From assembly GCA_040219255.1 (NCBI GenBank), contig JAVJSW010000046.1, positions 64,001-128,000 on the forward strand: a stretch of DNA of 64,000 nt, given 5' to 3'. Origin of the DNA: Sumerlaeia bacterium (lineage in GTDB: Bacteria; Sumerlaeota; Sumerlaeia; SLMS01; JAHLLQ01). The translations under genes were made by a program, and so were the position numbers. Shown piece after piece: positions 38,053 to 60,556 of the stretch. Within the stretch, counting starts at the first letter, position 1, and every line of letters starts with the position of its first letter. Below the pieces are notes generated by a model. It searched no databases. It was not told the origin of the DNA and worked only from the letters and a program-made list of their open reading frames with translations.

Positions 38053-38061
38053 GTGGCCGAC

Positions 38062-40107
38062 ATGTTGAAAAAGCACCATCGCTTCCGCGTTTTACTCTTT
38101 GGCTTCGCCTTCTGCGTCCTCACCGCCATGGTGATCGCTCGGTTGGCGAACCTCCAGATCGCCCGTCACGAGCAGTATCTCGAACGGGCCGATCGCCAGC
38201 AGAACAAGCGCGTGGTGGTGCAAGCTCAACGGGGCGATATCCTCGATCGGCGGGGGAGGCCGCTCGCCAACAGCGCGGGCACATTGTCCCTCTACACGGA
38301 CAATCGCTATCTGCGGCCTCCCCACGCCGACCTGGATCTTGGTGCTCTCGCCTATCAGATCAGCCATTACGCCGACCAGGACCCCGACTCCGTCCGGCGA
38401 CGGCTCGCCCGCGAGGGCGTCGTGCCCGTCGCTCGCCAACTCCCCCCGGAAAACGCGCACCAGATCGGCAACATCCTCGATGACTACGGCATCGATGGCC
38501 GCGGCTATTGGCTCCATCGCGAGAGCAAGCGTCTCTATCCGCGAGGCCTCGCGCCTCACATCATTGGCTTCTGCAGCACCGATGGCGATGGCGACAACAA
38601 GGGGCAGTCCGGCTTGGAACTCGTCTACAATGAGGTCATTCAAGGCCAGCGCATCGAGGCCCGCAGCCGCCGCACCGGCATCAGTCAGACCATGGACCCG
38701 GTCGAGTACGAGGACCTCTTGAGCGCTCAGGGCCACACGCTCCTTCTGACGATCGACTCCGCAATCCAGGAAACCGCTGAGAAGGCTCTCGCCCGCGCCT
38801 GCGAGGAATGGCAGGCGGACTCCGGCGGCGTCGTCGTCCAGGACGCCCGCACCGGCGGTATTCTGACCATGGCGTCCTGGCCGACATTCGACAACCAGGC
38901 CCCCGGCGGCGCCGAAGCCGATTTTCTCCGCAACCGCATGCTCACCGATCCGCTGGAAACGGGCTCGGTGGTGAAACTCTATACCGCCGCCATACTTCTC
39001 GACACGGACAAGATCCGCATCGACTCGCCGGTCGATTGCGAGGGCGGCCGGGCATACATCGACGGACGCCGCGTCAGCGATTCGCCTGGCCATTACCTCG
39101 ACACCGTTCCGTTCTACGAAGTGCTCCGCCACTCCAGCAACATCGGCATCATCAAGACCGCCCTCGCGCTGGAAAACGAGGAGTGGTATCGATACTTGCG
39201 CGACTTCGGCTTTGGCCAGAAAACGGGCATCGATCTCCCCGGCGAGGGTGCCGGCCTGCTTTACCACCCGGACCGCTGGACCAAGTTCAGCCGCACGTCC
39301 CTGCCGATGGGTTACGAGATCGCCCTGACACCGATTCAGATCACCAACGCCATCACGGCGCTGGTCAATGGTGGCGAAGTACTGGAACCGTATGTTGTCG
39401 CCGAAGTCCGCGACGCCCGCGGCAACGTCGTCGAACGCCAGTCCCGCACCGTCGTCCGCCGAGTCATCCGCCCCTCCACCAGCTTGCAGATGCGGTACGT
39501 CATGGAGGATGTCGTGGTGAATGGCACCGGCAAGAAAGCCCAAGTGCCAGGTTTTCGCGTCGGTGGTAAGACCGGCACCACGCGCAAGAGCCACGTTCTG
39601 ACCCACCGCGAGTACATCGCGTCCTTTGCCGGCGCCCTCCCCATCGACGATCCCCGGGTGACGATCTACTGCTACATCGATAATCCCAAGGGTGCCTACT
39701 ATGCCTCGACGGTGGCGGCGCCGCTCTTTCAGGAAGTGGCCCAGGCCAGCGTCGTCCACCTCGGACTGGTGCCCTCGGAAACGGGTGGCGAAAAGGCCGC
39801 GCCGGTGCTGGAGGAGTACTTCGGCAAGTCTACCAAGACGATGGCCAAACCGAAGACTCTCGACGATCTGCCCGATCCGACGGACATGCCCAACTTGACT
39901 GGCCTGACGATGGCGGCGGCGCGCAAGGAACTACCCCCCACCGCCCGCAACGTGCGATTCATGGGCTCCGGGCGCCTGGTCGATCAGGTTCCCGCCGCCG
40001 GAGAAAGTGTGTCCGAATCGACCATGGTGGTCTTGACATTCTCCCCGCCCGCCCCGGCTTATGCGGATGTTTCCCCCTCGAACGCGAAAGGCCGCTCCCG
40101 CCGATGA
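38062..40107 (+). CDS. ftsI: Class B penicillin-binding protein FtsI (PBP3) with C-terminal PASTA-like domain
   Basis: N-terminal TM, RGDILDRRG, R.YP.G, GLEL.YN, LTIDS.IQ, SVVK / SSN / KTG catalytic motifs, MPNLTGLT PASTA-like start. Confidence 0.93.
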   Translation: MLKKHHRFRVLLFGFAFCVLTAMVIARLANLQIARHEQYLERADRQQNKRVVVQAQRGDILDRRGRPLANSAGTLSLYTDNRYLRPPHADLDLGALAYQISHYADQDPDSVRRRLAREGVVPVARQLPPENAHQIGNILDDYGIDGRGYWLHRESKRLYPRGLAPHIIGFCSTDGDGDNKGQSGLELVYNEVIQGQRIEARSRRTGISQTMDPVEYEDLLSAQGHTLLLTIDSAIQETAEKALARACEEWQADSGGVVVQDARTGGILTMASWPTFDNQAPGGAEADFLRNRMLTDPLETGSVVKLYTAAILLDTDKIRIDSPVDCEGGRAYIDGRRVSDSPGHYLDTVPFYEVLRHSSNIGIIKTALALENEEWYRYLRDFGFGQKTGIDLPGEGAGLLYHPDRWTKFSRTSLPMGYEIALTPIQITNAITALVNGGEVLEPYVVAEVRDARGNVVERQSRTVVRRVIRPSTSLQMRYVMEDVVVNGTGKKAQVPGFRVGGKTGTTRKSHVLTHREYIASFAGALPIDDPRVTIYCYIDNPKGAYYASTVAAPLFQEVAQASVVHLGLVPSETGGEKAAPVLEEYFGKSTKTMAKPKTLDDLPDPTDMPNLTGLTMAAARKELPPTARNVRFMGSGRLVDQVPAAGESVSESTMVVLTFSPPAPAYADVSPSNAKGRSRR

Positions 40108-51878: not shown

Positions 51879-53240
51879 ATGTCCCGCTCGCCCTCCGAAT
51901 TTGGTTCTTCCGACGCCCAACCGATCGCCGTTTCCCTCGGAAAATCGATCGATTTGCCCATTCTTCCGGCCGACTCCCTCGCTCCGCGCGCGCCCGGTGC
52001 CATCGACTTTCAGCCCCCCAAGAAAACCCGCCTCTTCACCGGGCTCGACATCGGCACCACGAAAGTCTGCGCCATCATCGGCGAGATCGACCCCAGCGGC
52101 CAGACCACAGTCAAGGGCCTCGCCAGCACGCCCAGCCAAGGCCTTCAGCGCGGCGTCGTCATGAATCTCGACGAGACGATCCACTCGATCCGCTCAGCCA
52201 TTCAGCACGCCGAAGAAATCGCCCGCGTCAGCGTCCGCGACGTCCTCGTCGGCATCGCCGGCAGCCACATCCAGACCCACAACGTCCTGCACACCATCAA
52301 GATTCAGAACCCCGAGCGCGGCATCAGCAAGAGCGACGTCAAGAAAGTCGTCGACCGGGCCGTGGCCAGTGTTGCCAGCGCCGACCGCGAAGTCGTCCAG
52401 GTCGTCACCCAGCGGTTCCTCATCGACGACGGTGAAGTCTCGCGCCCCGTCGGAGTCTCCAGCCACGAACTCTCCGTCGAGGTCCTCGTGGTCACCGCCG
52501 CCATGTCCAGCGCCCAGAACATCGTGCGCGCCGTCAAGCAGGCGGGCTATCACACCAGTGGCATCTACCTCGAACCGCTCGCGTCGTCCCTCGCCGTCCT
52601 CACACCCGAGGAGCGCAACCTCGGCGTCCTCGTCGTGGACATCGGCGGCGGCACCTCCGACATCGCCCTGTGGGCCCACGGGGCGGTGCGGTTCACGGGC
52701 AGCGTCCCCTTCGGCGGCGACAGCATCACCGAGGATATTTCGAGCGTCCTGAAGATCAGCCGCTACGACGCCGAGAATCTGAAAAAGCGCTTTGGAGGTT
52801 GCGATCTGGACTCGCCGAACCTGGACCAGGAAATCGAGGTCCCCCTCGCCGTCACCGGCGCCATGACCAAGGTCAACCGCCGCCTGCTCTGCGAAATCAT
52901 CGAGTCGCGCCTCGCGGAGATCATGGAGCTGTGCGTCGAGAACTGCCGCCGCTCGCGCTACTTCGACCCGAACAACCTGGGCGGAATCATTCTCACGGGC
53001 GGCGCGGCGCTTACCGATGGCCTCGCCGGCCTGGGTGAACGGACCTTCCAATTGCCCTGCAAAGTCGGCGTCCCCATGGGCCTCAAGGGCCTCGCCAGCA
53101 TCGCCGATTCGCCGATCTACTCCACCGGCGTCGGCCTCGTTCGCTACGGTCTCAAGCACGAGCACGACCTCGATTTCAGCGAGGCCAACCTCTTCTCGCG
53201 GCTTATGGGCTTCTTCAAACGCTCGATCGAGTGGTATTGA
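51879..53240 (+). CDS. ftsA: Cell division protein FtsA
   Basis: GLDIGTTKV, GLQRGVV, LASSLAVL..EE..LGVLVVDIGGGTSD, AENLKKRFG, IILTGG, YSTGVGL, C-terminal amphipathic helix LFSRLMGFFKR. Confidence 0.95.
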   Translation: MSRSPSEFGSSDAQPIAVSLGKSIDLPILPADSLAPRAPGAIDFQPPKKTRLFTGLDIGTTKVCAIIGEIDPSGQTTVKGLASTPSQGLQRGVVMNLDETIHSIRSAIQHAEEIARVSVRDVLVGIAGSHIQTHNVLHTIKIQNPERGISKSDVKKVVDRAVASVASADREVVQVVTQRFLIDDGEVSRPVGVSSHELSVEVLVVTAAMSSAQNIVRAVKQAGYHTSGIYLEPLASSLAVLTPEERNLGVLVVDIGGGTSDIALWAHGAVRFTGSVPFGGDSITEDISSVLKISRYDAENLKKRFGGCDLDSPNLDQEIEVPLAVTGAMTKVNRRLLCEIIESRLAEIMELCVENCRRSRYFDPNNLGGIILTGGAALTDGLAGLGERTFQLPCKVGVPMGLKGLASIADSPIYSTGVGLVRYGLKHEHDLDFSEANLFSRLMGFFKRSIEWY

Positions 53241-53276
53241 GGCCGTTCAACTTACGGGGTTCAACGTCGCGGGTTC

Positions 53277-54701
53277 TCACTCCTTTGTCCGCGTCGGCTC
53301 GAACAACACCTGCTCGATCACCCATTCTTCGCCCTGCTTGCGCAGGGTCAGCACCGCTTCCATGAACATGTCGCCATTCTCGCCTTTCAGGTCCACGTTG
53401 GCCTGGCGGACTTCCGCGTGCGAACCGGAAACCTGCGGCACGGCGGTGGTGAACTTGCTGGCCAACTCCTCGTTTTCCATACGGCGGATGTCGGCCAGGA
53501 GCATATCGGTGTGCATTACGCCGCCGCCGCTGGCGTAGGTTTTCGCTTCGTCCGCGTCGCCGTCTATCAGCGCGTCGAAGTACAGGTTGACCACACCGTA
53601 GGGCGTTCCGGTGGTGTTGGTTGGAATGACGAGTTTCTTCACATTGAGAATCACCACGATAAGGAGAATCACCGAGGCTAGGGCGATGCCGCCCTTGATG
53701 AGCAAACCACGGTTTTCGTAGAGCTTCTGCTGCGCGGGCGAGCGCCCCTCGGCAGCCCGTGCCGCCAGGACTTCCGTGGCGTCTTCGTCCGCCTCCTTCT
53801 TCGCATAGCGGTCCGCCGCCAGCCGCGTCATTTTCGGATCCGGGTATTGGCCGTTGCGGGGCGTGATGCCGCCCTCCAGGATCGTGACCAGCCGTTTGAA
53901 CGGAACGGCGTTGCGCAGCGCCTGGGTCTTGCGCGGCAGTTCGAAATTTCCCGCGGCGCATTCCGCCCAGATCCAACTGATCGCGTACACGTCGGCGTGA
54001 ACTTCGTCCGGGGCTTTGGCGGCCGCCAGCTCCGGCGCGGTATAACGCCCGCCGCCCAGCAGCGCTGCCTCCCGGGACACGCCGGGTGCCACCGGGATCA
54101 GGCGCCAGCGATTCTCCGCGTCCGCCGGACCGACCTTCGAGGGATCTTCCACGATGGTCAGCGGCGTCAGGTTCACCGGCCCCAGCCCATGGCTCAGCGC
54201 GTCGTAGGACGCCTTGGCGGCACTTTGCGCCATGCGAGCTTCCTTCTTGAGGGAAAACGTCTTGGCCGCCTGCGCTTCCAATTCCCCGGCCTGGCCCTTC
54301 AGCCCCTTCGCCTCCGCGCCCTTCAGCGTGTTCGCCTGGGCCTTCAGGCCCGCCGCCTTGGCCTTTAGATTCATCGCTTCTTCGGCCAGAGACTTGACGA
54401 TCGGACCGCCCGGATCCTCCACCAGAAGATGCGGAACCTCGGCGTCGCCGTGCATCGCCCGGATGTTCAGCAGGCCCGGCGCGGAGAAGGTTTCCGCCAG
54501 CACTTTCCACCGTTCCAGATGGGGCGCCGCTTCCGCGTAAAGCCGCCGCCCCGCCTCGGTGGCGTAAACGACCAGGAACGCCGGGTCCGCCTCCTTGAGC
54601 TGGCCGCGCCAGATTTCGCCCCAGGCCTCGGCCAGGACCAGAGTCTCCGGCACAAAGCCGTCCGGTCCCCAGGCTTCTCCCGCTTTCAGAAAGCTTGTCA
54701 T
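53277..54701 (-). CDS. Membrane-anchored protein-kinase-like (pseudokinase) protein with coiled-coil insert and NTF2-like external domain
   Basis: AWGEIWRG, PHLLVED, RYTAPE, ADVYAISWI resemble Hanks subdomains; no VAIK/HRD/DFG. TM GGIALASVILLIVVIL; TPYGVVNLYFDALIDGD...LRKQGEEWVI. Start 54701 chosen by alignment with the paralog. Confidence 0.7.
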   Translation of the reverse strand: MTSFLKAGEAWGPDGFVPETLVLAEAWGEIWRGQLKEADPAFLVVYATEAGRRLYAEAAPHLERWKVLAETFSAPGLLNIRAMHGDAEVPHLLVEDPGGPIVKSLAEEAMNLKAKAAGLKAQANTLKGAEAKGLKGQAGELEAQAAKTFSLKKEARMAQSAAKASYDALSHGLGPVNLTPLTIVEDPSKVGPADAENRWRLIPVAPGVSREAALLGGGRYTAPELAAAKAPDEVHADVYAISWIWAECAAGNFELPRKTQALRNAVPFKRLVTILEGGITPRNGQYPDPKMTRLAADRYAKKEADEDATEVLAARAAEGRSPAQQKLYENRGLLIKGGIALASVILLIVVILNVKKLVIPTNTTGTPYGVVNLYFDALIDGDADEAKTYASGGGVMHTDMLLADIRRMENEELASKFTTAVPQVSGSHAEVRQANVDLKGENGDMFMEAVLTLRKQGEEWVIEQVLFEPTRTKE

Positions 54702-54799
54702 CGTGGCACGCTCCGTCTGGATTACCGGGCCAAAGCCCGCCGATTTTCCGAATCGCGTGCAAATTGCCATGAAGGAGCAAGCGGCACAAGCCAGTTCCG

Positions 54800-56170
54800 C
54801 TAATTGGCCGCCGGGCTCGAACTCACCCTCGAAACCTTGTAAGTTCCGTCGCCCTGCTTCTCAAGTCCCACGCGCACCGATAGAACCTTCTTGCCCGCCG
54901 CATCGCGCAGCAAGCCTTGCCCTTCGTAGAAGTCGCCCTTCTTTTCCGCGACGATCGGGCTAAAGGCCCCCCGCTTGGCCATCTTGCCCGACGATTCCAT
55001 CTCGGTGATATGTTTCAGCAGATCGGTGGTGTCCTGCTGCGCATTGCCGACCGCCATCTTGGCGGCGCCGCTGCCGCTGCCTTTCAGGACCGCCGAGAAA
55101 TACCGGTCCGCCGCGCCGATGGGAGATTGCAGCGCCGTGCTCGGAGCCGTCTTGTCCGTGTAGATCTTCGCGCCCACCAGCCCTCCCGCTGTCAGCAGGA
55201 TGGTCAGCAAGATCGTCCCCACCAAGGTCAGAATCTGCTTCTTGCCCATCTTCTTCTCATAGGACTTGCCGAGCGTCTTTTTCTTGATGGCCTCGACGGA
55301 AACCGGCGCGGGAGCCTTCTTTCCGGTGCGCTTCTTATAGTCGGCGGTCAGTTCCTTGCGCCACTTCTTGACGTCCTTGTCCGCCTCATTGCGCAGCCAC
55401 CGCTTGAGCCCGCCCTCCACCACGGCCGGTTCCAGGCAACGGCCACTGCGCAACGCCAAGCCGTTGGCCAAGTGTTTGCCCAACAGCGGCGCCGGAATCG
55501 TTTGCTCGAAAGACGCGGCGGAAATCTCCAGGTCCCAGTTGCGCATCAGCGCCTGCGCGGACACCGCCACCAGCGACCACGTGTCCGGATGCAGCATCCG
55601 CGGATCGCAGGTCTGGTCCTGCAACGGTGGCGGGCTGTAGCGCCCGCCCGCCAGGTAAAGGGCCTGCATCGCATTCGACGGTGCCACGGGCAGCACGCGG
55701 AATGGGTGCGTCCTGTTCTCGGCCCCGCAGTAAAACAGGGTGTCGGGCGTCACGCCGATGGGCTGCAAGTCCAGCAACTCCACCTCCGCGAGCGCCTTGA
55801 GCGTCTTCACCAGATCGTAGATAAAATCCTGCGGATCGTAGAAGAAACTCTCGTCCGCCATGGCCTGCCGCAGCGTCGGCGCCCGCTGATCTTCTGCCAG
55901 GACGTAGGGGATGGCCGAGTCGGGCGAAACGTGCAGGATCGGGATCAGCATCGGGGCGCTGAAGTTCCCGCGCTCCTTCCACCGATCCAGGTGTGGCCGG
56001 CTCTTCTCGAAAATCCTCAGCCCCTCGGTGGTCGTGTAGGCGATGAACAGCACCTGGCCGAGGCGCTCGTGCGTGGCTTTCCAGACCTCGCCCCAGGCGT
56101 CCTCGAAAATCAGCTCGTGTGTGGTGATTCCCTGATCGGGCACTTCCCGGCCCGGCTGGCACATGGGCAT
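54800..56170 (-). CDS. Paralogous membrane-anchored pseudokinase with NTF2-like external domain
   Basis: AWGEVWKA, PYVLAED..PTLRQ, GGRYSPP, PDTWSL; Lys-rich linker, TM ILTLVGTILLTILLTAGGLVG, SPIGAADRYFSAVL...LEKQGDGTYKV. Confidence 0.7.
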   Translation of the reverse strand: MPMCQPGREVPDQGITTHELIFEDAWGEVWKATHERLGQVLFIAYTTTEGLRIFEKSRPHLDRWKERGNFSAPMLIPILHVSPDSAIPYVLAEDQRAPTLRQAMADESFFYDPQDFIYDLVKTLKALAEVELLDLQPIGVTPDTLFYCGAENRTHPFRVLPVAPSNAMQALYLAGGRYSPPPLQDQTCDPRMLHPDTWSLVAVSAQALMRNWDLEISAASFEQTIPAPLLGKHLANGLALRSGRCLEPAVVEGGLKRWLRNEADKDVKKWRKELTADYKKRTGKKAPAPVSVEAIKKKTLGKSYEKKMGKKQILTLVGTILLTILLTAGGLVGAKIYTDKTAPSTALQSPIGAADRYFSAVLKGSGSGAAKMAVGNAQQDTTDLLKHITEMESSGKMAKRGAFSPIVAEKKGDFYEGQGLLRDAAGKKVLSVRVGLEKQGDGTYKVSRVSSSPAAN

Positions 56171-56363: not shown

Positions 56364-58208
56364 CTACCCTTTGTTCCCGAGCCGCCGGTCCAGATCGAAC
56401 GCCGCGCTGATCAGCCCGAGGTGCGTGAAGGCTTGCGGGAAGTTCCCAAGGTGCTCGCCGCTCCGGCCCAACTCCTCCGCATACAGCCCCAGGTGGTTCG
56501 CATACCCCTGCATTTTCTCAAAGTAGAAGCGCGCTTTTTCCACGTCGCCGGCCCGCGAGAGGCATTCCACGAACCAGAAGCTGCACATGGAAAACGTCCC
56601 TTCCGTCCCGTGCAGCCCGTCCGGGCTGTGCAGGTTGTGGTAACGATACACCAGCGAATCGTCCACCAACTGCTTTTCGACCGCCTTCATGTGCGAAAGC
56701 CACCGCGGATCCTTGGGGCTGATGAACTTGATCAGTGGCATCAGGAGCGAGGCGGCGTCCAGCGCGTCCGAGCCTTCGAACTGCATGAAGGCCCCCACCT
56801 GTGGGTTCCAGAACTTCTCGAACACATCGAAGTACATGCGGTCGCGGGCCTTCATCCATCGGTCCATCGGTGCCGGCAGCGAGCGTTTCAGCGCCAGCCG
56901 AATCCCGCGATCCACCGCCACCCAGCACATCACGCGCGAGAACAGGAACTTCTGCCGTCCGCCACGCACTTCCCAGATGCCCTCGTCCGGCTGATCGTAA
57001 TTCTCGCAAACCCAATCGATCAGCTTCCTCAGGTTCATCCACAGATCGTATGAGATCGGCTCGGCGAACTTGTCGTACATATAGACCGAATCCATCAGCT
57101 CGCCATAGATGTCGAGCTGGAGCTGATCGTAGGCCCCGTTGCCGACCCGCACCGGCCGCGAGCCCCGATAGCCTTCCAGGTGCGACAGGTCCTCCTCCTT
57201 CAAATCATGGCGGCCGTCGATGCCGTACATGATGTTGAGCGACCGGCCATCGGCCAGCTCGCGGCAGCGGGCCTCCATCCACCCCATAAAGTTCTCCGCT
57301 TCCTTTGTGTAACCCAGGCGGATCAGAGCGTAGAGCGTGAACGACGCGTCGCGAATCCAAGTGTAGCGGTAGTCCCAATTGCGCGATCCGCCGATTTCCT
57401 CCGGCAGCCCGAAAGTCGGCGCCGCCACGATGGAGCCGTGGGGCTCGGAGACCAGCAGCTTCAGCGTCAGCGCCGAGCGCTCCATCATGTCGTGCCAGCG
57501 GCCCGAGTACTTCATGCGCGACAGCCACGATCGCCAATAGTTCACCGTTTGCTTGAAGGAACTGGAGACAAAATCCTCCGAGGTGGAGGGCGAGTCGGCG
57601 CATTCGTCGCCGAGCGCTTCCATTACGAAGGCGACGTTTTCTCCGGCGCAGAGGCGGAATTCGGCACACGCCGCGCCCTCCTTCAAAGTGATAGGAACCC
57701 CGTCCTCGCAGCCGGAAAAGATCCTCAGGCGCAACGCGGTGCGGTCCGGCCCGCGCGAGAGGAAGTGGAACTCGCTGTCCGAAATCTGGCGAATCTCATG
57801 ATCCGCCCGGGCGTAATCGAACCGCGGCGCGAAGACCATCCGGAACACGATTTCTCCCCGCACGCACTTCGCCCGCCGCACCAGATCGTTTTTCGGACAG
57901 GTCTCGGTGATCGGCATGAAGTCGGAAACCTCGCCCACCCCATCGTGCGACAGAAACCGCGTCAGCAGGATGTTGGATTCCGGCAAGTAGATTTGCTTAT
58001 GATTCGCATCGTTCAGCAGTGGCGCCACAAGAAACCGCCCGCCCTTTTTTCGGTCCAGCAGCGACGCGAAAATCGTCGGCGAATCGAATCGGGGGAAGCA
58101 CATGAAGTCGATGGAGCCATCCATTCCCACTAAAGCCACCGTGTTCAAATCGCCCACGACTCCGTAGTTCGCGATCGGCTGATAGTCCTCTTGAATCGGC
58201 AGGGGCAT
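56364..58208 (-). CDS. Glycoside hydrolase family 15 (trehalase/glucoamylase-like)
   Basis: C.PRFDSP.IF..LLD, AAPTFGLPEEIGGSRNWDYRYTWIRDA, QLDIYGE, DEGIWEVRG, EGTFSMCSFW, LGNFPQAFTH. Confidence 0.93.
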   Translation of the reverse strand: MPLPIQEDYQPIANYGVVGDLNTVALVGMDGSIDFMCFPRFDSPTIFASLLDRKKGGRFLVAPLLNDANHKQIYLPESNILLTRFLSHDGVGEVSDFMPITETCPKNDLVRRAKCVRGEIVFRMVFAPRFDYARADHEIRQISDSEFHFLSRGPDRTALRLRIFSGCEDGVPITLKEGAACAEFRLCAGENVAFVMEALGDECADSPSTSEDFVSSSFKQTVNYWRSWLSRMKYSGRWHDMMERSALTLKLLVSEPHGSIVAAPTFGLPEEIGGSRNWDYRYTWIRDASFTLYALIRLGYTKEAENFMGWMEARCRELADGRSLNIMYGIDGRHDLKEEDLSHLEGYRGSRPVRVGNGAYDQLQLDIYGELMDSVYMYDKFAEPISYDLWMNLRKLIDWVCENYDQPDEGIWEVRGGRQKFLFSRVMCWVAVDRGIRLALKRSLPAPMDRWMKARDRMYFDVFEKFWNPQVGAFMQFEGSDALDAASLLMPLIKFISPKDPRWLSHMKAVEKQLVDDSLVYRYHNLHSPDGLHGTEGTFSMCSFWFVECLSRAGDVEKARFYFEKMQGYANHLGLYAEELGRSGEHLGNFPQAFTHLGLISAAFDLDRRLGNKG

Positions 58209-58282
58209 AAAGGCGTCCTCTCCTGGGGGGCCGTGAGTCGATCGTTCAGGTCAGCCAATTGAAACGAAAAGGATGCCTGAGT

Positions 58283-60424
58283 CTATTCAGCCTGCCGGTC
58301 CACCGCCGCTAGGTCCACCACAAAGACCCCATCGCGCGGCCGGAAAACCACCCCCGTCAGGAGTCGCTCGACCAGCGCCCGGTATCGCGGCCAGAGGGCG
58401 TCGGGGAATCGGGGCTTGAAGAACATGTCCTCGTAGAGGGCCAGCTCCGCGTAATTGATCAGCACGTATCGGATGCCGCGCTTTCGCCAGTTTTCCAGCA
58501 GCGCCGCGTTCGAATCCGCCGCCTCCAACTCGACCAGGATACGGGGCCGGTCGAACCAGTCGGACAGGATCACCGGATAATCCGCGTAAAGGCCCCGATG
58601 CTCGCCGATATAAAAAACCTTCTCGCCCGGCTCCACTTCCGCGTTCAGCCATTGCACTGCGGTGTAGGCGTTGAAGCGGCTTGCCAGCACCGTTTCCTCG
58701 CCGATCAGCCCCAGTCCCGCCGCCACCGGCCGCGATGGCGCCCGGAACAGCGTGTAGGCGCCATGCCAGGCCATTCCTCCGATCGCCAGCGCCACCACCG
58801 ATCCCGCCGCCGTCCGGCGAAGCCAGCGGCCCGTGGGCTGCACCGCGAATCCCAGCGCCGCCACCCCCAGCACCGCCACCAGCGCCAGCGGCAGCATGCC
58901 GAAACGCACGCTCTGATACGTCAGGAACCAGAACGCCCAGCTTCCGAACAATAAAAGCCCAAGCATCAGCGCCAGCACCCTCCTCTCGCGACCCCGGCCC
59001 TTGGCGAGCAGCGCCAGCGCGAAGAGCGCCGCCGGCAGCAGCGCCAGCAGCACCGGCCCCGGATTGTGGGCCTCGAACGCCACCCAGTTCCACGACGCCT
59101 CGAACGGCGCCCGGATCAGATCGCCCGGCAACCCATGTCCTACGCCCTTGTCGGCGAGGCGCCCCTTGTAGAAGGCGTCCGTCGCCGCATCCCACTCCGG
59201 TCCCCCGAACAATCCGTAACCCGCCGGATAGACTGGGTTGCGATGATAAATCCAGTTCCGCACAAACCAGGACATCGGTACCAAAGCCGCCGGCAACGAA
59301 AACCGCACCGCGTCCAACAAGACCGTCTTCCAGTTCCAACCACTCCCCTTCCCCCGCTCCCAAGCCTGGACGTGGCTGGCCGCACGTTGCACGCCCCCCA
59401 CCACGACGATCGTCCCCAGCATGCCTCCGGTGACTACCGCCGTCAGCTTTGTCCCGACCGCCGCCCCGGCGAACAGGCCCGCCAGTATGACCCGGTCGCG
59501 GCGGCACCGCAGGCTGCCGGGCGCCAACGCCCAGACCGCCGCAAGCGTGAACGCCAGCGTACTCAGGTCCACGAACGGCCACGCCGCCAGCACCAGCACC
59601 ACCGGCGCCGAAACCGCCATCACACCCGCCAGTGCGGGCCACGGCCCGGCTTCCAGCGGACCTTCCGCGCGCCGCTGTCCGGCCCACAGTTGCCTCAGCA
59701 CCACCCGTCCCAGCGCCGCGCAGAGCACCGCCACCACCGGCAGGTAACTCCAGTGCAGCAGTTGACTCGCCCGCGCTCCGCCCAGCGGCATTGCCGTCAT
59801 GTACAGCATGTTTGTCTGGAACGGCAAATTCGTGAAGGAGTTGTAGGGGAGCGCCGCCAGCGAACCCTGCTTCAGGAACTCCTGGATGCCGAAGAGGTGG
59901 TAGCGCAGCCCATCGCTCTCGACCGCCGGAGCGAGTGCCGCGATGAACGCGATCGTCACGGATGGCACCGCCAGCCACCACGGCCAGCGCGCCCCCGGCC
60001 GCGCCGCGCCGCTTTCCGATTTCCAGTACCTCCAGAGCCCCGGCGCGAAGACCGCTCCGCCCAGCACCACCAGCAACCCCCACGGCAGCAGCCCCACCGC
60101 CCCCGCCGCGAACGCCAGAAGCGCCACCGCCACGTGGCCCGTCAGCAGGCAAACGGCCAAGCCCTTCGCCCGGCCCAGGCCCCGCAGATCGAGCCCCCAT
60201 CCCGCCAACCCATGGCCCCAGCAAACCGCCAGGGCCGAGAGCAAACCCGCCGCCAAGACCGCCCGGGCCTGTGCCACCGGCACTTCCGGTTCGTACACCG
60301 GCAGGAACGGGCCGAGGTTTCGCCAGGGCATGTCCCAGCCCTCCGCCAGCCACATCAGGCAGCCCGCCGCCGCGGCCGCCAGCAATAAACCCGGCGGCAC
60401 CCACCGCCCAGCATCAGTTCTCAA
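58283..60424 (-). CDS. Polytopic membrane protein, GT-C (lipid-carrier-dependent glycosyltransferase)-like
   Basis: Many TM segments; DGLRYHL, WPFVDL, GTKLT, WFVRNW...NPVYP; TTG 60424 with AAGGAG upstream. Confidence 0.65.
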   Translation of the reverse strand: MRTDAGRWVPPGLLLAAAAAGCLMWLAEGWDMPWRNLGPFLPVYEPEVPVAQARAVLAAGLLSALAVCWGHGLAGWGLDLRGLGRAKGLAVCLLTGHVAVALLAFAAGAVGLLPWGLLVVLGGAVFAPGLWRYWKSESGAARPGARWPWWLAVPSVTIAFIAALAPAVESDGLRYHLFGIQEFLKQGSLAALPYNSFTNLPFQTNMLYMTAMPLGGARASQLLHWSYLPVVAVLCAALGRVVLRQLWAGQRRAEGPLEAGPWPALAGVMAVSAPVVLVLAAWPFVDLSTLAFTLAAVWALAPGSLRCRRDRVILAGLFAGAAVGTKLTAVVTGGMLGTIVVVGGVQRAASHVQAWERGKGSGWNWKTVLLDAVRFSLPAALVPMSWFVRNWIYHRNPVYPAGYGLFGGPEWDAATDAFYKGRLADKGVGHGLPGDLIRAPFEASWNWVAFEAHNPGPVLLALLPAALFALALLAKGRGRERRVLALMLGLLLFGSWAFWFLTYQSVRFGMLPLALVAVLGVAALGFAVQPTGRWLRRTAAGSVVALAIGGMAWHGAYTLFRAPSRPVAAGLGLIGEETVLASRFNAYTAVQWLNAEVEPGEKVFYIGEHRGLYADYPVILSDWFDRPRILVELEAADSNAALLENWRKRGIRYVLINYAELALYEDMFFKPRFPDALWPRYRALVERLLTGVVFRPRDGVFVVDLAAVDRQAE

Positions 60425-60556
60425 CGCGGTTCGCTCCTTACAAAAGGTTTCCGCAACGAAACGGCGGGATTGGAGTTGCGACGCCCGGCATGCCACGCGA
60501 TAACTCGCCATGGACTGTTTCGCGGATCGCGAAGCCGACAACCGGACCAGGAACTC

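Follow-up and report, generated by a model that had tools for sequence, protein, structure and literature searches.

Bacterial pseudokinases are little studied. In the available parts of a 2025 review and of a preprint, seven families are distinguished (ActPs1-3, GLW, CP1, DYD and DLHK), with EssB/YukC, SidJ and SelO being treated as unclassified cases (PMC12599244; 10.1101/2025.01.12.632604) and, as far as those parts of the review go, almost none of the seven annotated families having a known role (PMC12599244). The published classification, as these sources present it, began from homologues of the Pfam family PF00069 (PMC12599244; 10.1101/2025.01.12.632604). The family described here, found in the phylum Sumerlaeota, falls below the PF00069 threshold. 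It is represented by two neighbouring minus-strand genes, named PkA (474 amino acids, aa) and PkB (456 aa), on a 64,000-nucleotide (nt) stretch of contig JAVJSW010000046.1 (the window, to which all coordinates refer) from the 5.3-Mb genome of a Sumerlaeia bacterium (G000, hereafter the source genome). PkA and PkB are very probably bitopic membrane pseudokinases carrying an NTF2-like ectodomain. The family is annotated only as "hypothetical protein" and is invisible to Pfam and NCBIfam, in whose scans neither PkA nor PkB was recognised.

The kinase-fold domain

The first line of evidence is a family profile, that is, an alignment of 44 members built from the PkA search. Compared with the PDB sequences, the profile gave 476 matches at E <= 10, the best 60 of which were all protein kinases. 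The top match was PknB of M. tuberculosis (E 1.9e-9), with PknB-type kinases being matched at E 1.9e-9 to 1e-4. When aligned by hhalign to P0069, a real kinase from the same homologue search (Pfam Pkinase E 1.8e-46), the profile reached a probability of 93% and an E of 3.1e-7 over PkA residues 15-260. The second line of evidence is structural. The AlphaFold2 model of PkA, computed with the family alignment, had a mean predicted local distance difference test score (pLDDT) of 96.4, and Foldseek returned for it at least 500 PDB matches at E <= 0.001, those listed being kinases. The best 50 chains found by VIA-align were likewise all kinases (Z 17-19.9 over ~220-255 residues). First among them was 3uqc_A, the kinase-homology domain of Rv3910/MviN (Z 19.9, root-mean-square deviation (rmsd) 2.9, 224 residues aligned), statistically tied with IRAK1 (Z 19.0) and PknB (Z 18.9); the TYK2 and JAK2 pseudokinase structures were also among the fold matches (Z 18.0-18.1). 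EssB/YukC and 3uqc were not among the Foldseek matches listed, and 3uqc was not among the best 60 of the 476 PDB sequence matches; with listings of limited length, these absences carry little information. Judged by profile and model, the N-terminal cytoplasmic domain is of the Hanks/PknB kinase fold. This is what the initial annotation of the locus had proposed, naming structure prediction as a check and the MviN pseudokinase as a precedent; both the proposal and the precedent hold well, the latter being the source of the top structural match.

At the sequence level, a pseudokinase is defined by the loss of at least one of the VAIK Lys, the HRD Asp and the DFG Asp, and in this family all three are lost. 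The motif columns were mapped by hhalign to P0069 and the residues counted in the 44 family sequences. The glycine-rich loop is replaced by (E/D)-x-W-G-E-x-W-R. The beta3 Lys, which corresponds to Val44 in PkA, occurs in 0/44 sequences, the position holding Val in 31, Ala in 6, Ile in 5 and Leu in 2. H-R-D reads P-V-N in PkA and P-I-G in PkB, the whole HRDxKxxN region having become P[VI][GN]xTPxT, with Thr and Thr in place of the catalytic-loop Lys and Asn. The HRD Asp is again found in 0/44 (Gly 38, Asn 4, Ala 1, Val 1), as is the Asp of D-F-G (0/44; Pro 43, Ser 1), a motif that here reads P-V-A. An HMMER alignment to PknB places the DFG equivalent a few residues away from the hhalign register, with no Asp nearby in either. 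The substitute residues are themselves conserved (W27 and G28 in 44/44, W31 in 40/44, R32 in 38/44, Y46 in 37/44, W65 in 40/44 and P203 in 43/44), and remnants of the ordinary kinase pattern are retained in the APE-motif Glu (29/44) and the subdomain IX Asp (42/44).

These counts agree with what had been read from the letters of the window. The mapping of the dead motifs, then done by hand, is reproduced by hhalign against a real kinase. The shared motifs AWGE[VI]W, PHL[DE]RWK, FSAP, TPxT, PVAP, GGRY and EADxD are all seen in the BLASTP alignment of PkA with PkB, most of them corresponding to columns conserved throughout the family. Since none of the 44 members has a triad residue at any of the three positions, the homologues do not keep K, HRD or DFG, and the refuting condition attached to the initial annotation turns out in favour of a pseudokinase. 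From its motifs, the domain would be catalytically dead, and the conserved Trp residues may plug the ATP site in the manner of Phe and Trp in MviN.

The strong conservation of new residues at the former active site (W27, G28, W31, R32, Y46, W65, G177 and P203) could also be taken as the mark of a repurposed enzyme, in which the kinase fold would support another catalysis, such as the AMPylation of SelO or the glutamylation of SidJ, or would accommodate a non-nucleotide ligand; precedents are reviewed in the available part of PMC12599244. The substitutes are, however, mostly aromatic residues, Gly or Pro and not acid/base residues, Lys and Asp at the triad positions are found in 0/44 each, and SelO and SidJ keep their ATP- and metal-binding residues (PMC12599244). 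Repurposing of this kind is therefore barely plausible.

Gene products, domain layout and topology

The PkA gene occupies positions 53277..54701 (-) and codes for the pseudokinase, the transmembrane (TM) helix and the NTF2-like ectodomain in 474 aa. At its full extent, the corresponding open reading frame (ORF) is of 497 aa (53277-54770(-)). Because the start at Met24 (window position 54701) is used by the database gene call P0004 and by all homologues in the alignment, and because a GGAG lies 9 nt upstream of its ATG, the 497-aa ORF is probably too long and the true protein is of 474 aa. The PkB gene, an ORF of 456 aa at 54800..56170 (-), encodes a paralogue with the same architecture and is separated from PkA by a gap of 98 nt. 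In BLASTP the two proteins share 24% identity across almost their full length (E 1e-32); they are therefore real and old paralogues, as expected from the initial description of two paralogous ORFs. The base composition of the region resembles that of its surroundings.

In PkA, the cytoplasmic kinase-fold domain with a juxtamembrane helix covers approximately residues 1-310 (53772..54701 (-)), the VIA-align match spanning model residues 3-307 and that of hhalign residues 15-260. Between the equivalents of alphaD and alphaE it holds an Ala/Lys/Gly/Gln-rich insertion of ~38 aa (~residues 110-147; 54261..54374 (-)), which the model presents as a helical hairpin and which, among the listed rows of the 44-sequence alignment, is present only in PkA. 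The TM helix is placed at ~residues 333-352 (53646..53705 (-)), the sole region with a Kyte-Doolittle 19-residue mean above 1.6 (2.75), and is followed by the extracytoplasmic NTF2-like domain at residues 355-474 (53280..53639 (-)). The equivalent parts of PkB are a cytoplasmic kinase-fold domain at ~residues 1-285 (55316..56170 (-)), which aligns with PkA and the family and has the same substituted motifs (AWGEVWK, LFIAY, PIGVTPDT, RVLPVAP and GGRY), a TM helix at ~residues 313-331 (55178..55234 (-); Kyte-Doolittle mean 2.2) with a Lys-rich stretch before it, and an extracytoplasmic domain at residues 335-456 (54803..55168 (-)), assigned through its alignment and BLASTP homology to the NTF2-like domain of PkA.

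Each protein has a single strongly hydrophobic stretch, and the tails that follow the helix are of ~122 aa (PkA) and ~125 aa (PkB), in keeping with the one TM helix and the external domain of ~110-120 aa first ascribed to each of them. Lys and Arg residues are more numerous on the N-terminal than on the C-terminal side of the helix, with 3 vs 2 in PkA and 6 vs 2 in PkB, where the six fall in the 15 residues preceding it. Following the positive-inside rule, the N-terminal ~310 residues should therefore be cytoplasmic and the last ~120 outside.

The PkB subfamily starts, in addition, with a strikingly conserved motif, M-[PA]-M-C-x-x-G-[KRS]-E-[IV]-P, in which the Cys at position 4 is invariant; a signal peptide is absent. 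The motif is seen at the N-terminus of PkB (window positions 56159-56170) and in the PkB-type genes of five related loci (L016, L017, L018, L033 and L034).

The outer domain

The ectodomain was modelled separately, from PkA residues 355-474 with 16 homologous tails. The model (pLDDT 94.2) has three helices and a curved four-stranded sheet with four long strands. The best 50 VIA-align matches were overwhelmingly NTF2-like (Z 9.5 down to 7.2) and comprised ketosteroid-isomerase-like and SnoaL-like proteins, the CaMKII association domain, DUF4783, and the periplasmic domains of VirB8, TraM and DotI. Foldseek gave 20 matches at E <= 1e-3, the best being SnoaL-like (E 1.1e-4), and those listed were almost all natural or designed NTF2-like proteins. 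As modelled, the outer domain is NTF2-like at the fold level. The earlier description of this domain as NTF2/DUF4878-like thus stands as regards the fold, as seen in the model, in VIA-align and in Foldseek. It does not stand for DUF4878 membership: at E <= 1, no Pfam family, DUF4878 included, was found for the ectodomain in PkA, PkB or the 44 members. Protein-atlas features score 0.90 for DUF4864 and 0.89 for DUF4878, which are weak leads only.

The presence of the VirB8-like periplasmic domains of TraM, DotI, CagV and PrgL among the structural neighbours (Z 7.3-9.1) bears on one alternative view of PkA and PkB, namely that the dead kinase and the NTF2/VirB8-like outer domain form a structural hub that would hold together an envelope complex independently of kinase signalling. 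In its overall plan EssB/YukC is alike, a cytoplasmic pseudokinase in which the three motifs are degraded being joined to one TM helix and to an outer domain (PMC12599244). Against this, the NTF2-like fold is very widespread, and the VirB8-like matches are therefore not specific; Pfam gives no YukC match at E <= 1; and no secretion-system or machine genes were conserved alongside the family genes in a Pfam survey of 65 neighbouring ORFs from 18 related loci. A hub of the EssB/YukC type is accordingly quite improbable.

Distribution, paralogy and fusion proteins

An exhaustive search with PkA against 1.84 billion representatives retrieved 68 proteins at E <= 1e-3, and a word-based search for PkB homologues gave 3 matches. 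Where a source name was given it was "hypothetical protein", in one case from a Candidatus Sumerlaeia metagenome-assembled genome (MAG), and a locus scan with the 10 closest sequences returned two loci, both from Candidatus Sumerlaeota MAGs. The family is thus known so far from Sumerlaeota, to which both named records belong, the metagenome members being unplaced. Within 75 Sumerlaeota genomes, sorted into family-level groups such as f1, f2, f4 and f14, the profile was matched at E <= 1e-10 in 28. In 22 of the 75, members were full-length or clearly fragmentary; these are the source genome, 8/10 genomes of f1, 9/11 of f2, 2/2 of f4 and 2/3 of f14. In the remaining six of the 28, the match was confined to a piece resembling the ectodomain or to a kinase core within larger proteins.

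In a tree of 19 sequences, PkB fell in a clade confined to f1 (support 99/100) and PkA grouped, with loose support, with sequences of f1 (G001), f2, f4 and f14. Members lying side by side were seen only in the source genome among the 75. In four other genomes (G018, G020, G022 and G024) there are two or three, placed on separate contigs; the other carriers have one copy. The initial annotation had regarded the pair as a heterodimeric scaffold. As a general property this is not supported: most relatives have one copy and the subfamilies of PkA and PkB are distinct, so that an obligate A-B heterodimer is unlikely as the general form of the family. A complex prediction for PkA 1-335 with PkB 1-285, each with its alignment, gave scores of 0.00 and 0.00 in a run made without controls, and has no weight for or against the pairing.

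A few members are fused to a kinase. In G018, a protein of 754 aa (G018:C36; L023 8982-11246) starts with a family pseudokinase domain (profile positions 2-259, E 4.5e-60), followed at residues 407-673 by a kinase domain (Pkinase E 1.3e-48) that is intact, with a glycine-rich loop, VVLK, HRDVKPTN and DFS, and then by a C-terminal membrane helix. The same pseudokinase-kinase tandem occurs in G022 (G022:C177:16065-16829) and in the metagenome protein P0058, the proteins being of 754-765 aa with a linker of ~130 aa. In a further reading, the family would be a JAK-like class of receptor pseudokinases specific to Sumerlaeota: the pseudokinase would pair with an active Hanks kinase and gate it according to a periplasmic ligand lodged in the NTF2-like cup, as JH2 does for JH1, the two being fused in few genomes and split in most, and the two anciently diverged subfamilies, brought together as two neighbouring genes, would form a heteromeric receptor in the source genome. 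Taken as a whole, this reading is unlikely.

Four metagenome representatives of 1015-1121 aa (P0036, P0037, P0047 and P0055) are long forms of the family, in which ~600 aa of unassigned outer sequence, rich in Pro/Ala and repeat-like, come after the pseudokinase and the membrane helix. A DUF5684 membrane domain terminates two of these four proteins.

Genomic setting and the question of a division role

Facing the pair, on the plus strand, is a normal dcw cluster composed of ftsI, murE, murF, murD, ftsW, murG/murC, murB, ftsQ and ftsA. The last gene of the cluster, ftsA (51879..53240 (+); TIGR01174 E 2.3e-100, Pfam FtsA and SHS2_FTSA), lies outside the system described here and provides its context. 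Its stop codon converges with that of PkA across a spacer of 36 nt (53241..53276), the end of ftsA being at 53240 and the PkA stop codon starting at 53277. This convergence had been noted initially, together with the observation that the pair takes the place of ftsZ in the dcw cluster, and a possible link to cell division had been drawn from it. It is indeed the case that ftsZ does not follow ftsA; in the source genome it is on another contig (G000:C8:93023-93976; L001 1468-3021), after a nitrite/sulfite-reductase-like gene. The functional meaning given to this arrangement is not supported by the comparison of gene order in relatives.

To the division reading correspond a displaced ftsZ, the 36 nt between the convergent stop codons of PkA and ftsA, and a best structural match with the MviN pseudokinase, which takes part in the control of mycobacterial cell-wall synthesis (PMC12599244). 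In its full form it would make of PkA and PkB an obligate heterodimeric dead-kinase scaffold for division, lodged in the ftsZ slot and contacting FtsA or FtsQ. The related loci speak against it. Around family members in relatives, 22 loci were fetched (21 distinct places in 19 genomes, one contig being fetched twice), with flanks of up to 8-10 kb, shorter on short contigs, and were searched with the window FtsA, FtsQ, MurB, MurC, FtsW, GH15 protein and a 752-aa membrane protein and with the FtsZ of the source genome. None of these proteins was found in any of the 22 loci (0/22), nor was a second family member beside the gene (0/22). The family gene of G001 (97% complete, 10 contigs) shares a contig with ftsA but is ~760 kb away from it; in G016, where the two again share a contig, the distance is ~118 kb. 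In 10 relatives, the sequence that follows ftsA, which in two of the loci runs out within ~1.3 kb, gave no match to a window ORF other than ftsA, and a family member was present in 0/10. In this clade, synteny breaks at the end of ftsA.

The positions of ftsA and ftsZ in 31 genomes lead to the same answer. They adjoin each other in five genomes (G012, G025, G040, G051 and G052), and in G014 the distance is 18 kb; in the others they are on different contigs, and in eight of these the sequence continues for 6 kb or more past ftsA. Two of the genomes with adjoining ftsA and ftsZ, G040 and G052, are carriers of the family, their pseudokinase gene being on a different contig, whereas in G004, G009, G011 and G017, with ftsZ on another contig, no family member was found. 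The displacement of ftsZ and the presence of the pseudokinase are therefore unrelated. The tandem arrangement and the proximity to ftsA are peculiar to the source genome, the only one where adjacency to the dcw cluster was seen, and the "ftsZ position" of the pair looks accidental, a coincidence of one genome's arrangement. With, in addition, single copies in most carriers and PkA and PkB in different subfamilies, a division scaffold is very improbable, and the eye-catching "ftsZ slot" should not be taken as a division function. Detachment of ftsZ from the dcw cluster is common to f1, f2 and f4.

The neighbours of family genes in relatives are heterogeneous and show short-range patterns only. 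A Znu-type ABC transporter operon (ABC-3 permease, ABC ATPase and ZnuA) lies directly beside the single member in four f1 loci (L016, L017, L019 and L027, from G006, G002, G001 and G007, respectively), and no such operon adjoins the PkA/PkB pair in the window. EI24/CysZ recurs in three f2 loci and DUF2784 in two loci.

Other features of the window may be recorded. Within the dcw cluster, the class B penicillin-binding protein, which is of the FtsI type (38053-40107 (+)), has a C-terminal PASTA domain (Pfam E 5.3e-7). Upstream of PkB and on the same strand (56364-60541 (-)) are a GH15 (glucoamylase/trehalase-like) gene, 193 nt away from PkB, and a gene for the 752-aa polytopic membrane protein, which has a weak match to the LIC_10190 family. 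The promoter and terminator scan revealed no promoter-like site, and no terminator-like site within the 36-nt ftsA/PkA spacer; two overlapping terminator-like sites were located within the coding sequence of PkA, on the strand opposite to it, fewer than the shuffle expectation. In a search of sequencing runs no RNA run matched, and three DNA runs did, all from one study, the best with 0.49 of the sampled words.

Proposed function

The explanation favoured here, which on balance seems probable, is that PkA and PkB are receptor-like, non-catalytic pseudokinase modules of a small Sumerlaeota family, operating within a large network of Hanks kinases. In the source genome, 45 matches to Pkinase exceed the Pfam cut-off, none of them being PkA or PkB, and there are 13 FHA matches. 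For a genome of 5.3 Mb this Hanks repertoire is very large, and many of the 45 matches lie in open frames of more than 1000 aa.

In such modules, a cytoplasmic dead kinase domain would be connected by a long helix and one membrane helix to the small NTF2-like domain outside. PkA and PkB would themselves phosphorylate nothing. The NTF2-like cup would bind something outside the membrane, and the resulting signal would be coupled to the Hanks-kinase network, the likeliest mode being a pairing with an active Hanks kinase that is tuned allosterically. Put as a mechanism, the module would dimerise with the active kinase and modulate it according to an outside ligand, which is proposed here tentatively. 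A joint working of both domains is favoured by the natural pseudokinase-kinase fusion.

A second mode would be a phospho-dependent docking platform of the MviN type, in which phosphorylation by an active Hanks kinase, on the pseudokinase or on its juxtamembrane segment, would lead to the recruitment of an FHA protein and so to the regulation of an envelope process. The top structural match (3uqc, the MviN pseudokinase), the 45 kinases and 13 FHA domains of the source genome, and the succession of pseudokinase, one TM helix and outer domain, which resembles the C-terminal part of MviN (PMC12599244), would all suit such a platform, as would an Arg-Ser/Thr that recurs just before the TM helix in the alignment of the PkA subfamily. 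Ordinary kinases, however, reach Z scores tied with that of 3uqc; apart from the remnant of the catalytic loop, the family as a whole conserves no Thr or Ser; conserved neighbours in the 18 loci include neither FHA nor kinase genes; and Pfam finds no MurJ-like domain attached. Docking of this type is on the whole unlikely.

The receptor-like module within the Hanks-kinase network has itself to be weighed against several observations. Pfam Pkinase (PF00069) gives no match at E <= 1 for PkA or PkB, and in the family only weak, sub-threshold matches in 5/44 members (best E 0.011); as the Pfam threshold is not reached, the kinase assignment rests on the profile and on the fold comparison. ATP binding would, from the motifs, be lost, and the domain may bind some non-canonical ligand or have acquired another enzymatic activity, in the manner of SelO or SidJ. 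No conserved neighbour points to a partner or a function in the 18 loci. Finally, the fusion was seen only in genus g14 and in one metagenome protein, and is therefore a hint, not a proof, of partnership in trans.

The family would offer a clean case for the study of dead kinases that regulate live ones in bacteria, with the added advantage of being naturally fused to an active kinase, in a phylum that combines a very large Hanks kinome with the lack of a cultured model.

Comparison with known systems

In the library searched, no literature was found that joins Sumerlaeota with pseudokinases, nor any relevant paper on bacterial pseudokinases with NTF2-like domains, and the available part of the Sumerlaeota genomics paper (PMC8092238) does not discuss the PkA and PkB genes. 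Some members may have been classified earlier in the supplementary tables of 10.1101/2025.01.12.632604.

EssB/YukC, a dimeric scaffold of type VIIb secretion, is likewise bitopic and has an N-terminal cytoplasmic pseudokinase without the three motifs and the glycine-rich loop (PMC12599244). It differs in its outer domain and in its phylum, the Sumerlaeota proteins having no YukC Pfam match at E <= 1. No genes of a type VII secretion system were found in the window neighbourhood or beside the genes of relatives (18 loci). The proteobacterial GLW family has also lost the three motifs, with a hydrophobic residue for the beta3 Lys, and has a C-terminal TM helix (PMC12599244). Its HRD has become G-L-W, in contrast with P-[VIL]-G in the Sumerlaeota family, and its beta3 is poly-Leu (LLLL/W) where the latter has V-A-Y. 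Given these motif differences, and in another phylum, the Sumerlaeota family is not GLW.

With the PknB-type Hanks kinases (PknB, PknA, StkP and Stk1), the family shares the bilobal fold and the order of kinase domain, one TM helix and outer sensor domain. It differs from them in lacking the Lys, the HRD Asp and the DFG Asp (44/44), in its WGExWR G-loop and in an outer domain that is NTF2-like and not PASTA. The JAK JH2-JH1 pair finds a parallel in G018, G022 and P0058, where the pseudokinase is N-terminal to an intact kinase in one polypeptide. This is an analogy of arrangement, with the kinase fold alone in common, and PkA and PkB of the source genome stand as separate proteins, each provided with a TM helix and an ectodomain.

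In sequence, the family is closer to PknB-type kinases than to MviN; in fold, MviN (Rv3910, ActPs3; 3uqc) is the nearest, with Z 19.9 and an rmsd of 2.9 over 224 residues, tied with IRAK1 and PknB. MviN resembles PkA and PkB in having all three catalytic motifs degraded and a single TM helix and outer domain after the pseudokinase. Bulky aromatic residues fill its ATP site (PMC12599244), and the Sumerlaeota family has an invariant Trp at the G-loop position. The differences are that the Sumerlaeota proteins have no MurJ flippase domain in Pfam, and that their outer domain is NTF2-like whereas that of MviN is carbohydrate-binding. ActPs3, from Actinobacteria, is described as having an activation-loop deletion of ~40 residues and motifs of the VALT and LSIDHPSR type (PMC12599244; 10.1101/2025.01.12.632604). 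In the Sumerlaeota family, the segment equivalent to DFG-to-APE is of ~22 residues vs ~31 in PknB, that is, ~9 shorter, ActPs3 being compared by description only; the ActPs3 motifs differ from those of the family, and the taxon is Sumerlaeota and not Actinobacteria. The proteins are rated here as a new family of bacterial transmembrane pseudokinases, restricted to one phylum and having a motif set of its own and a putative NTF2-like sensor.

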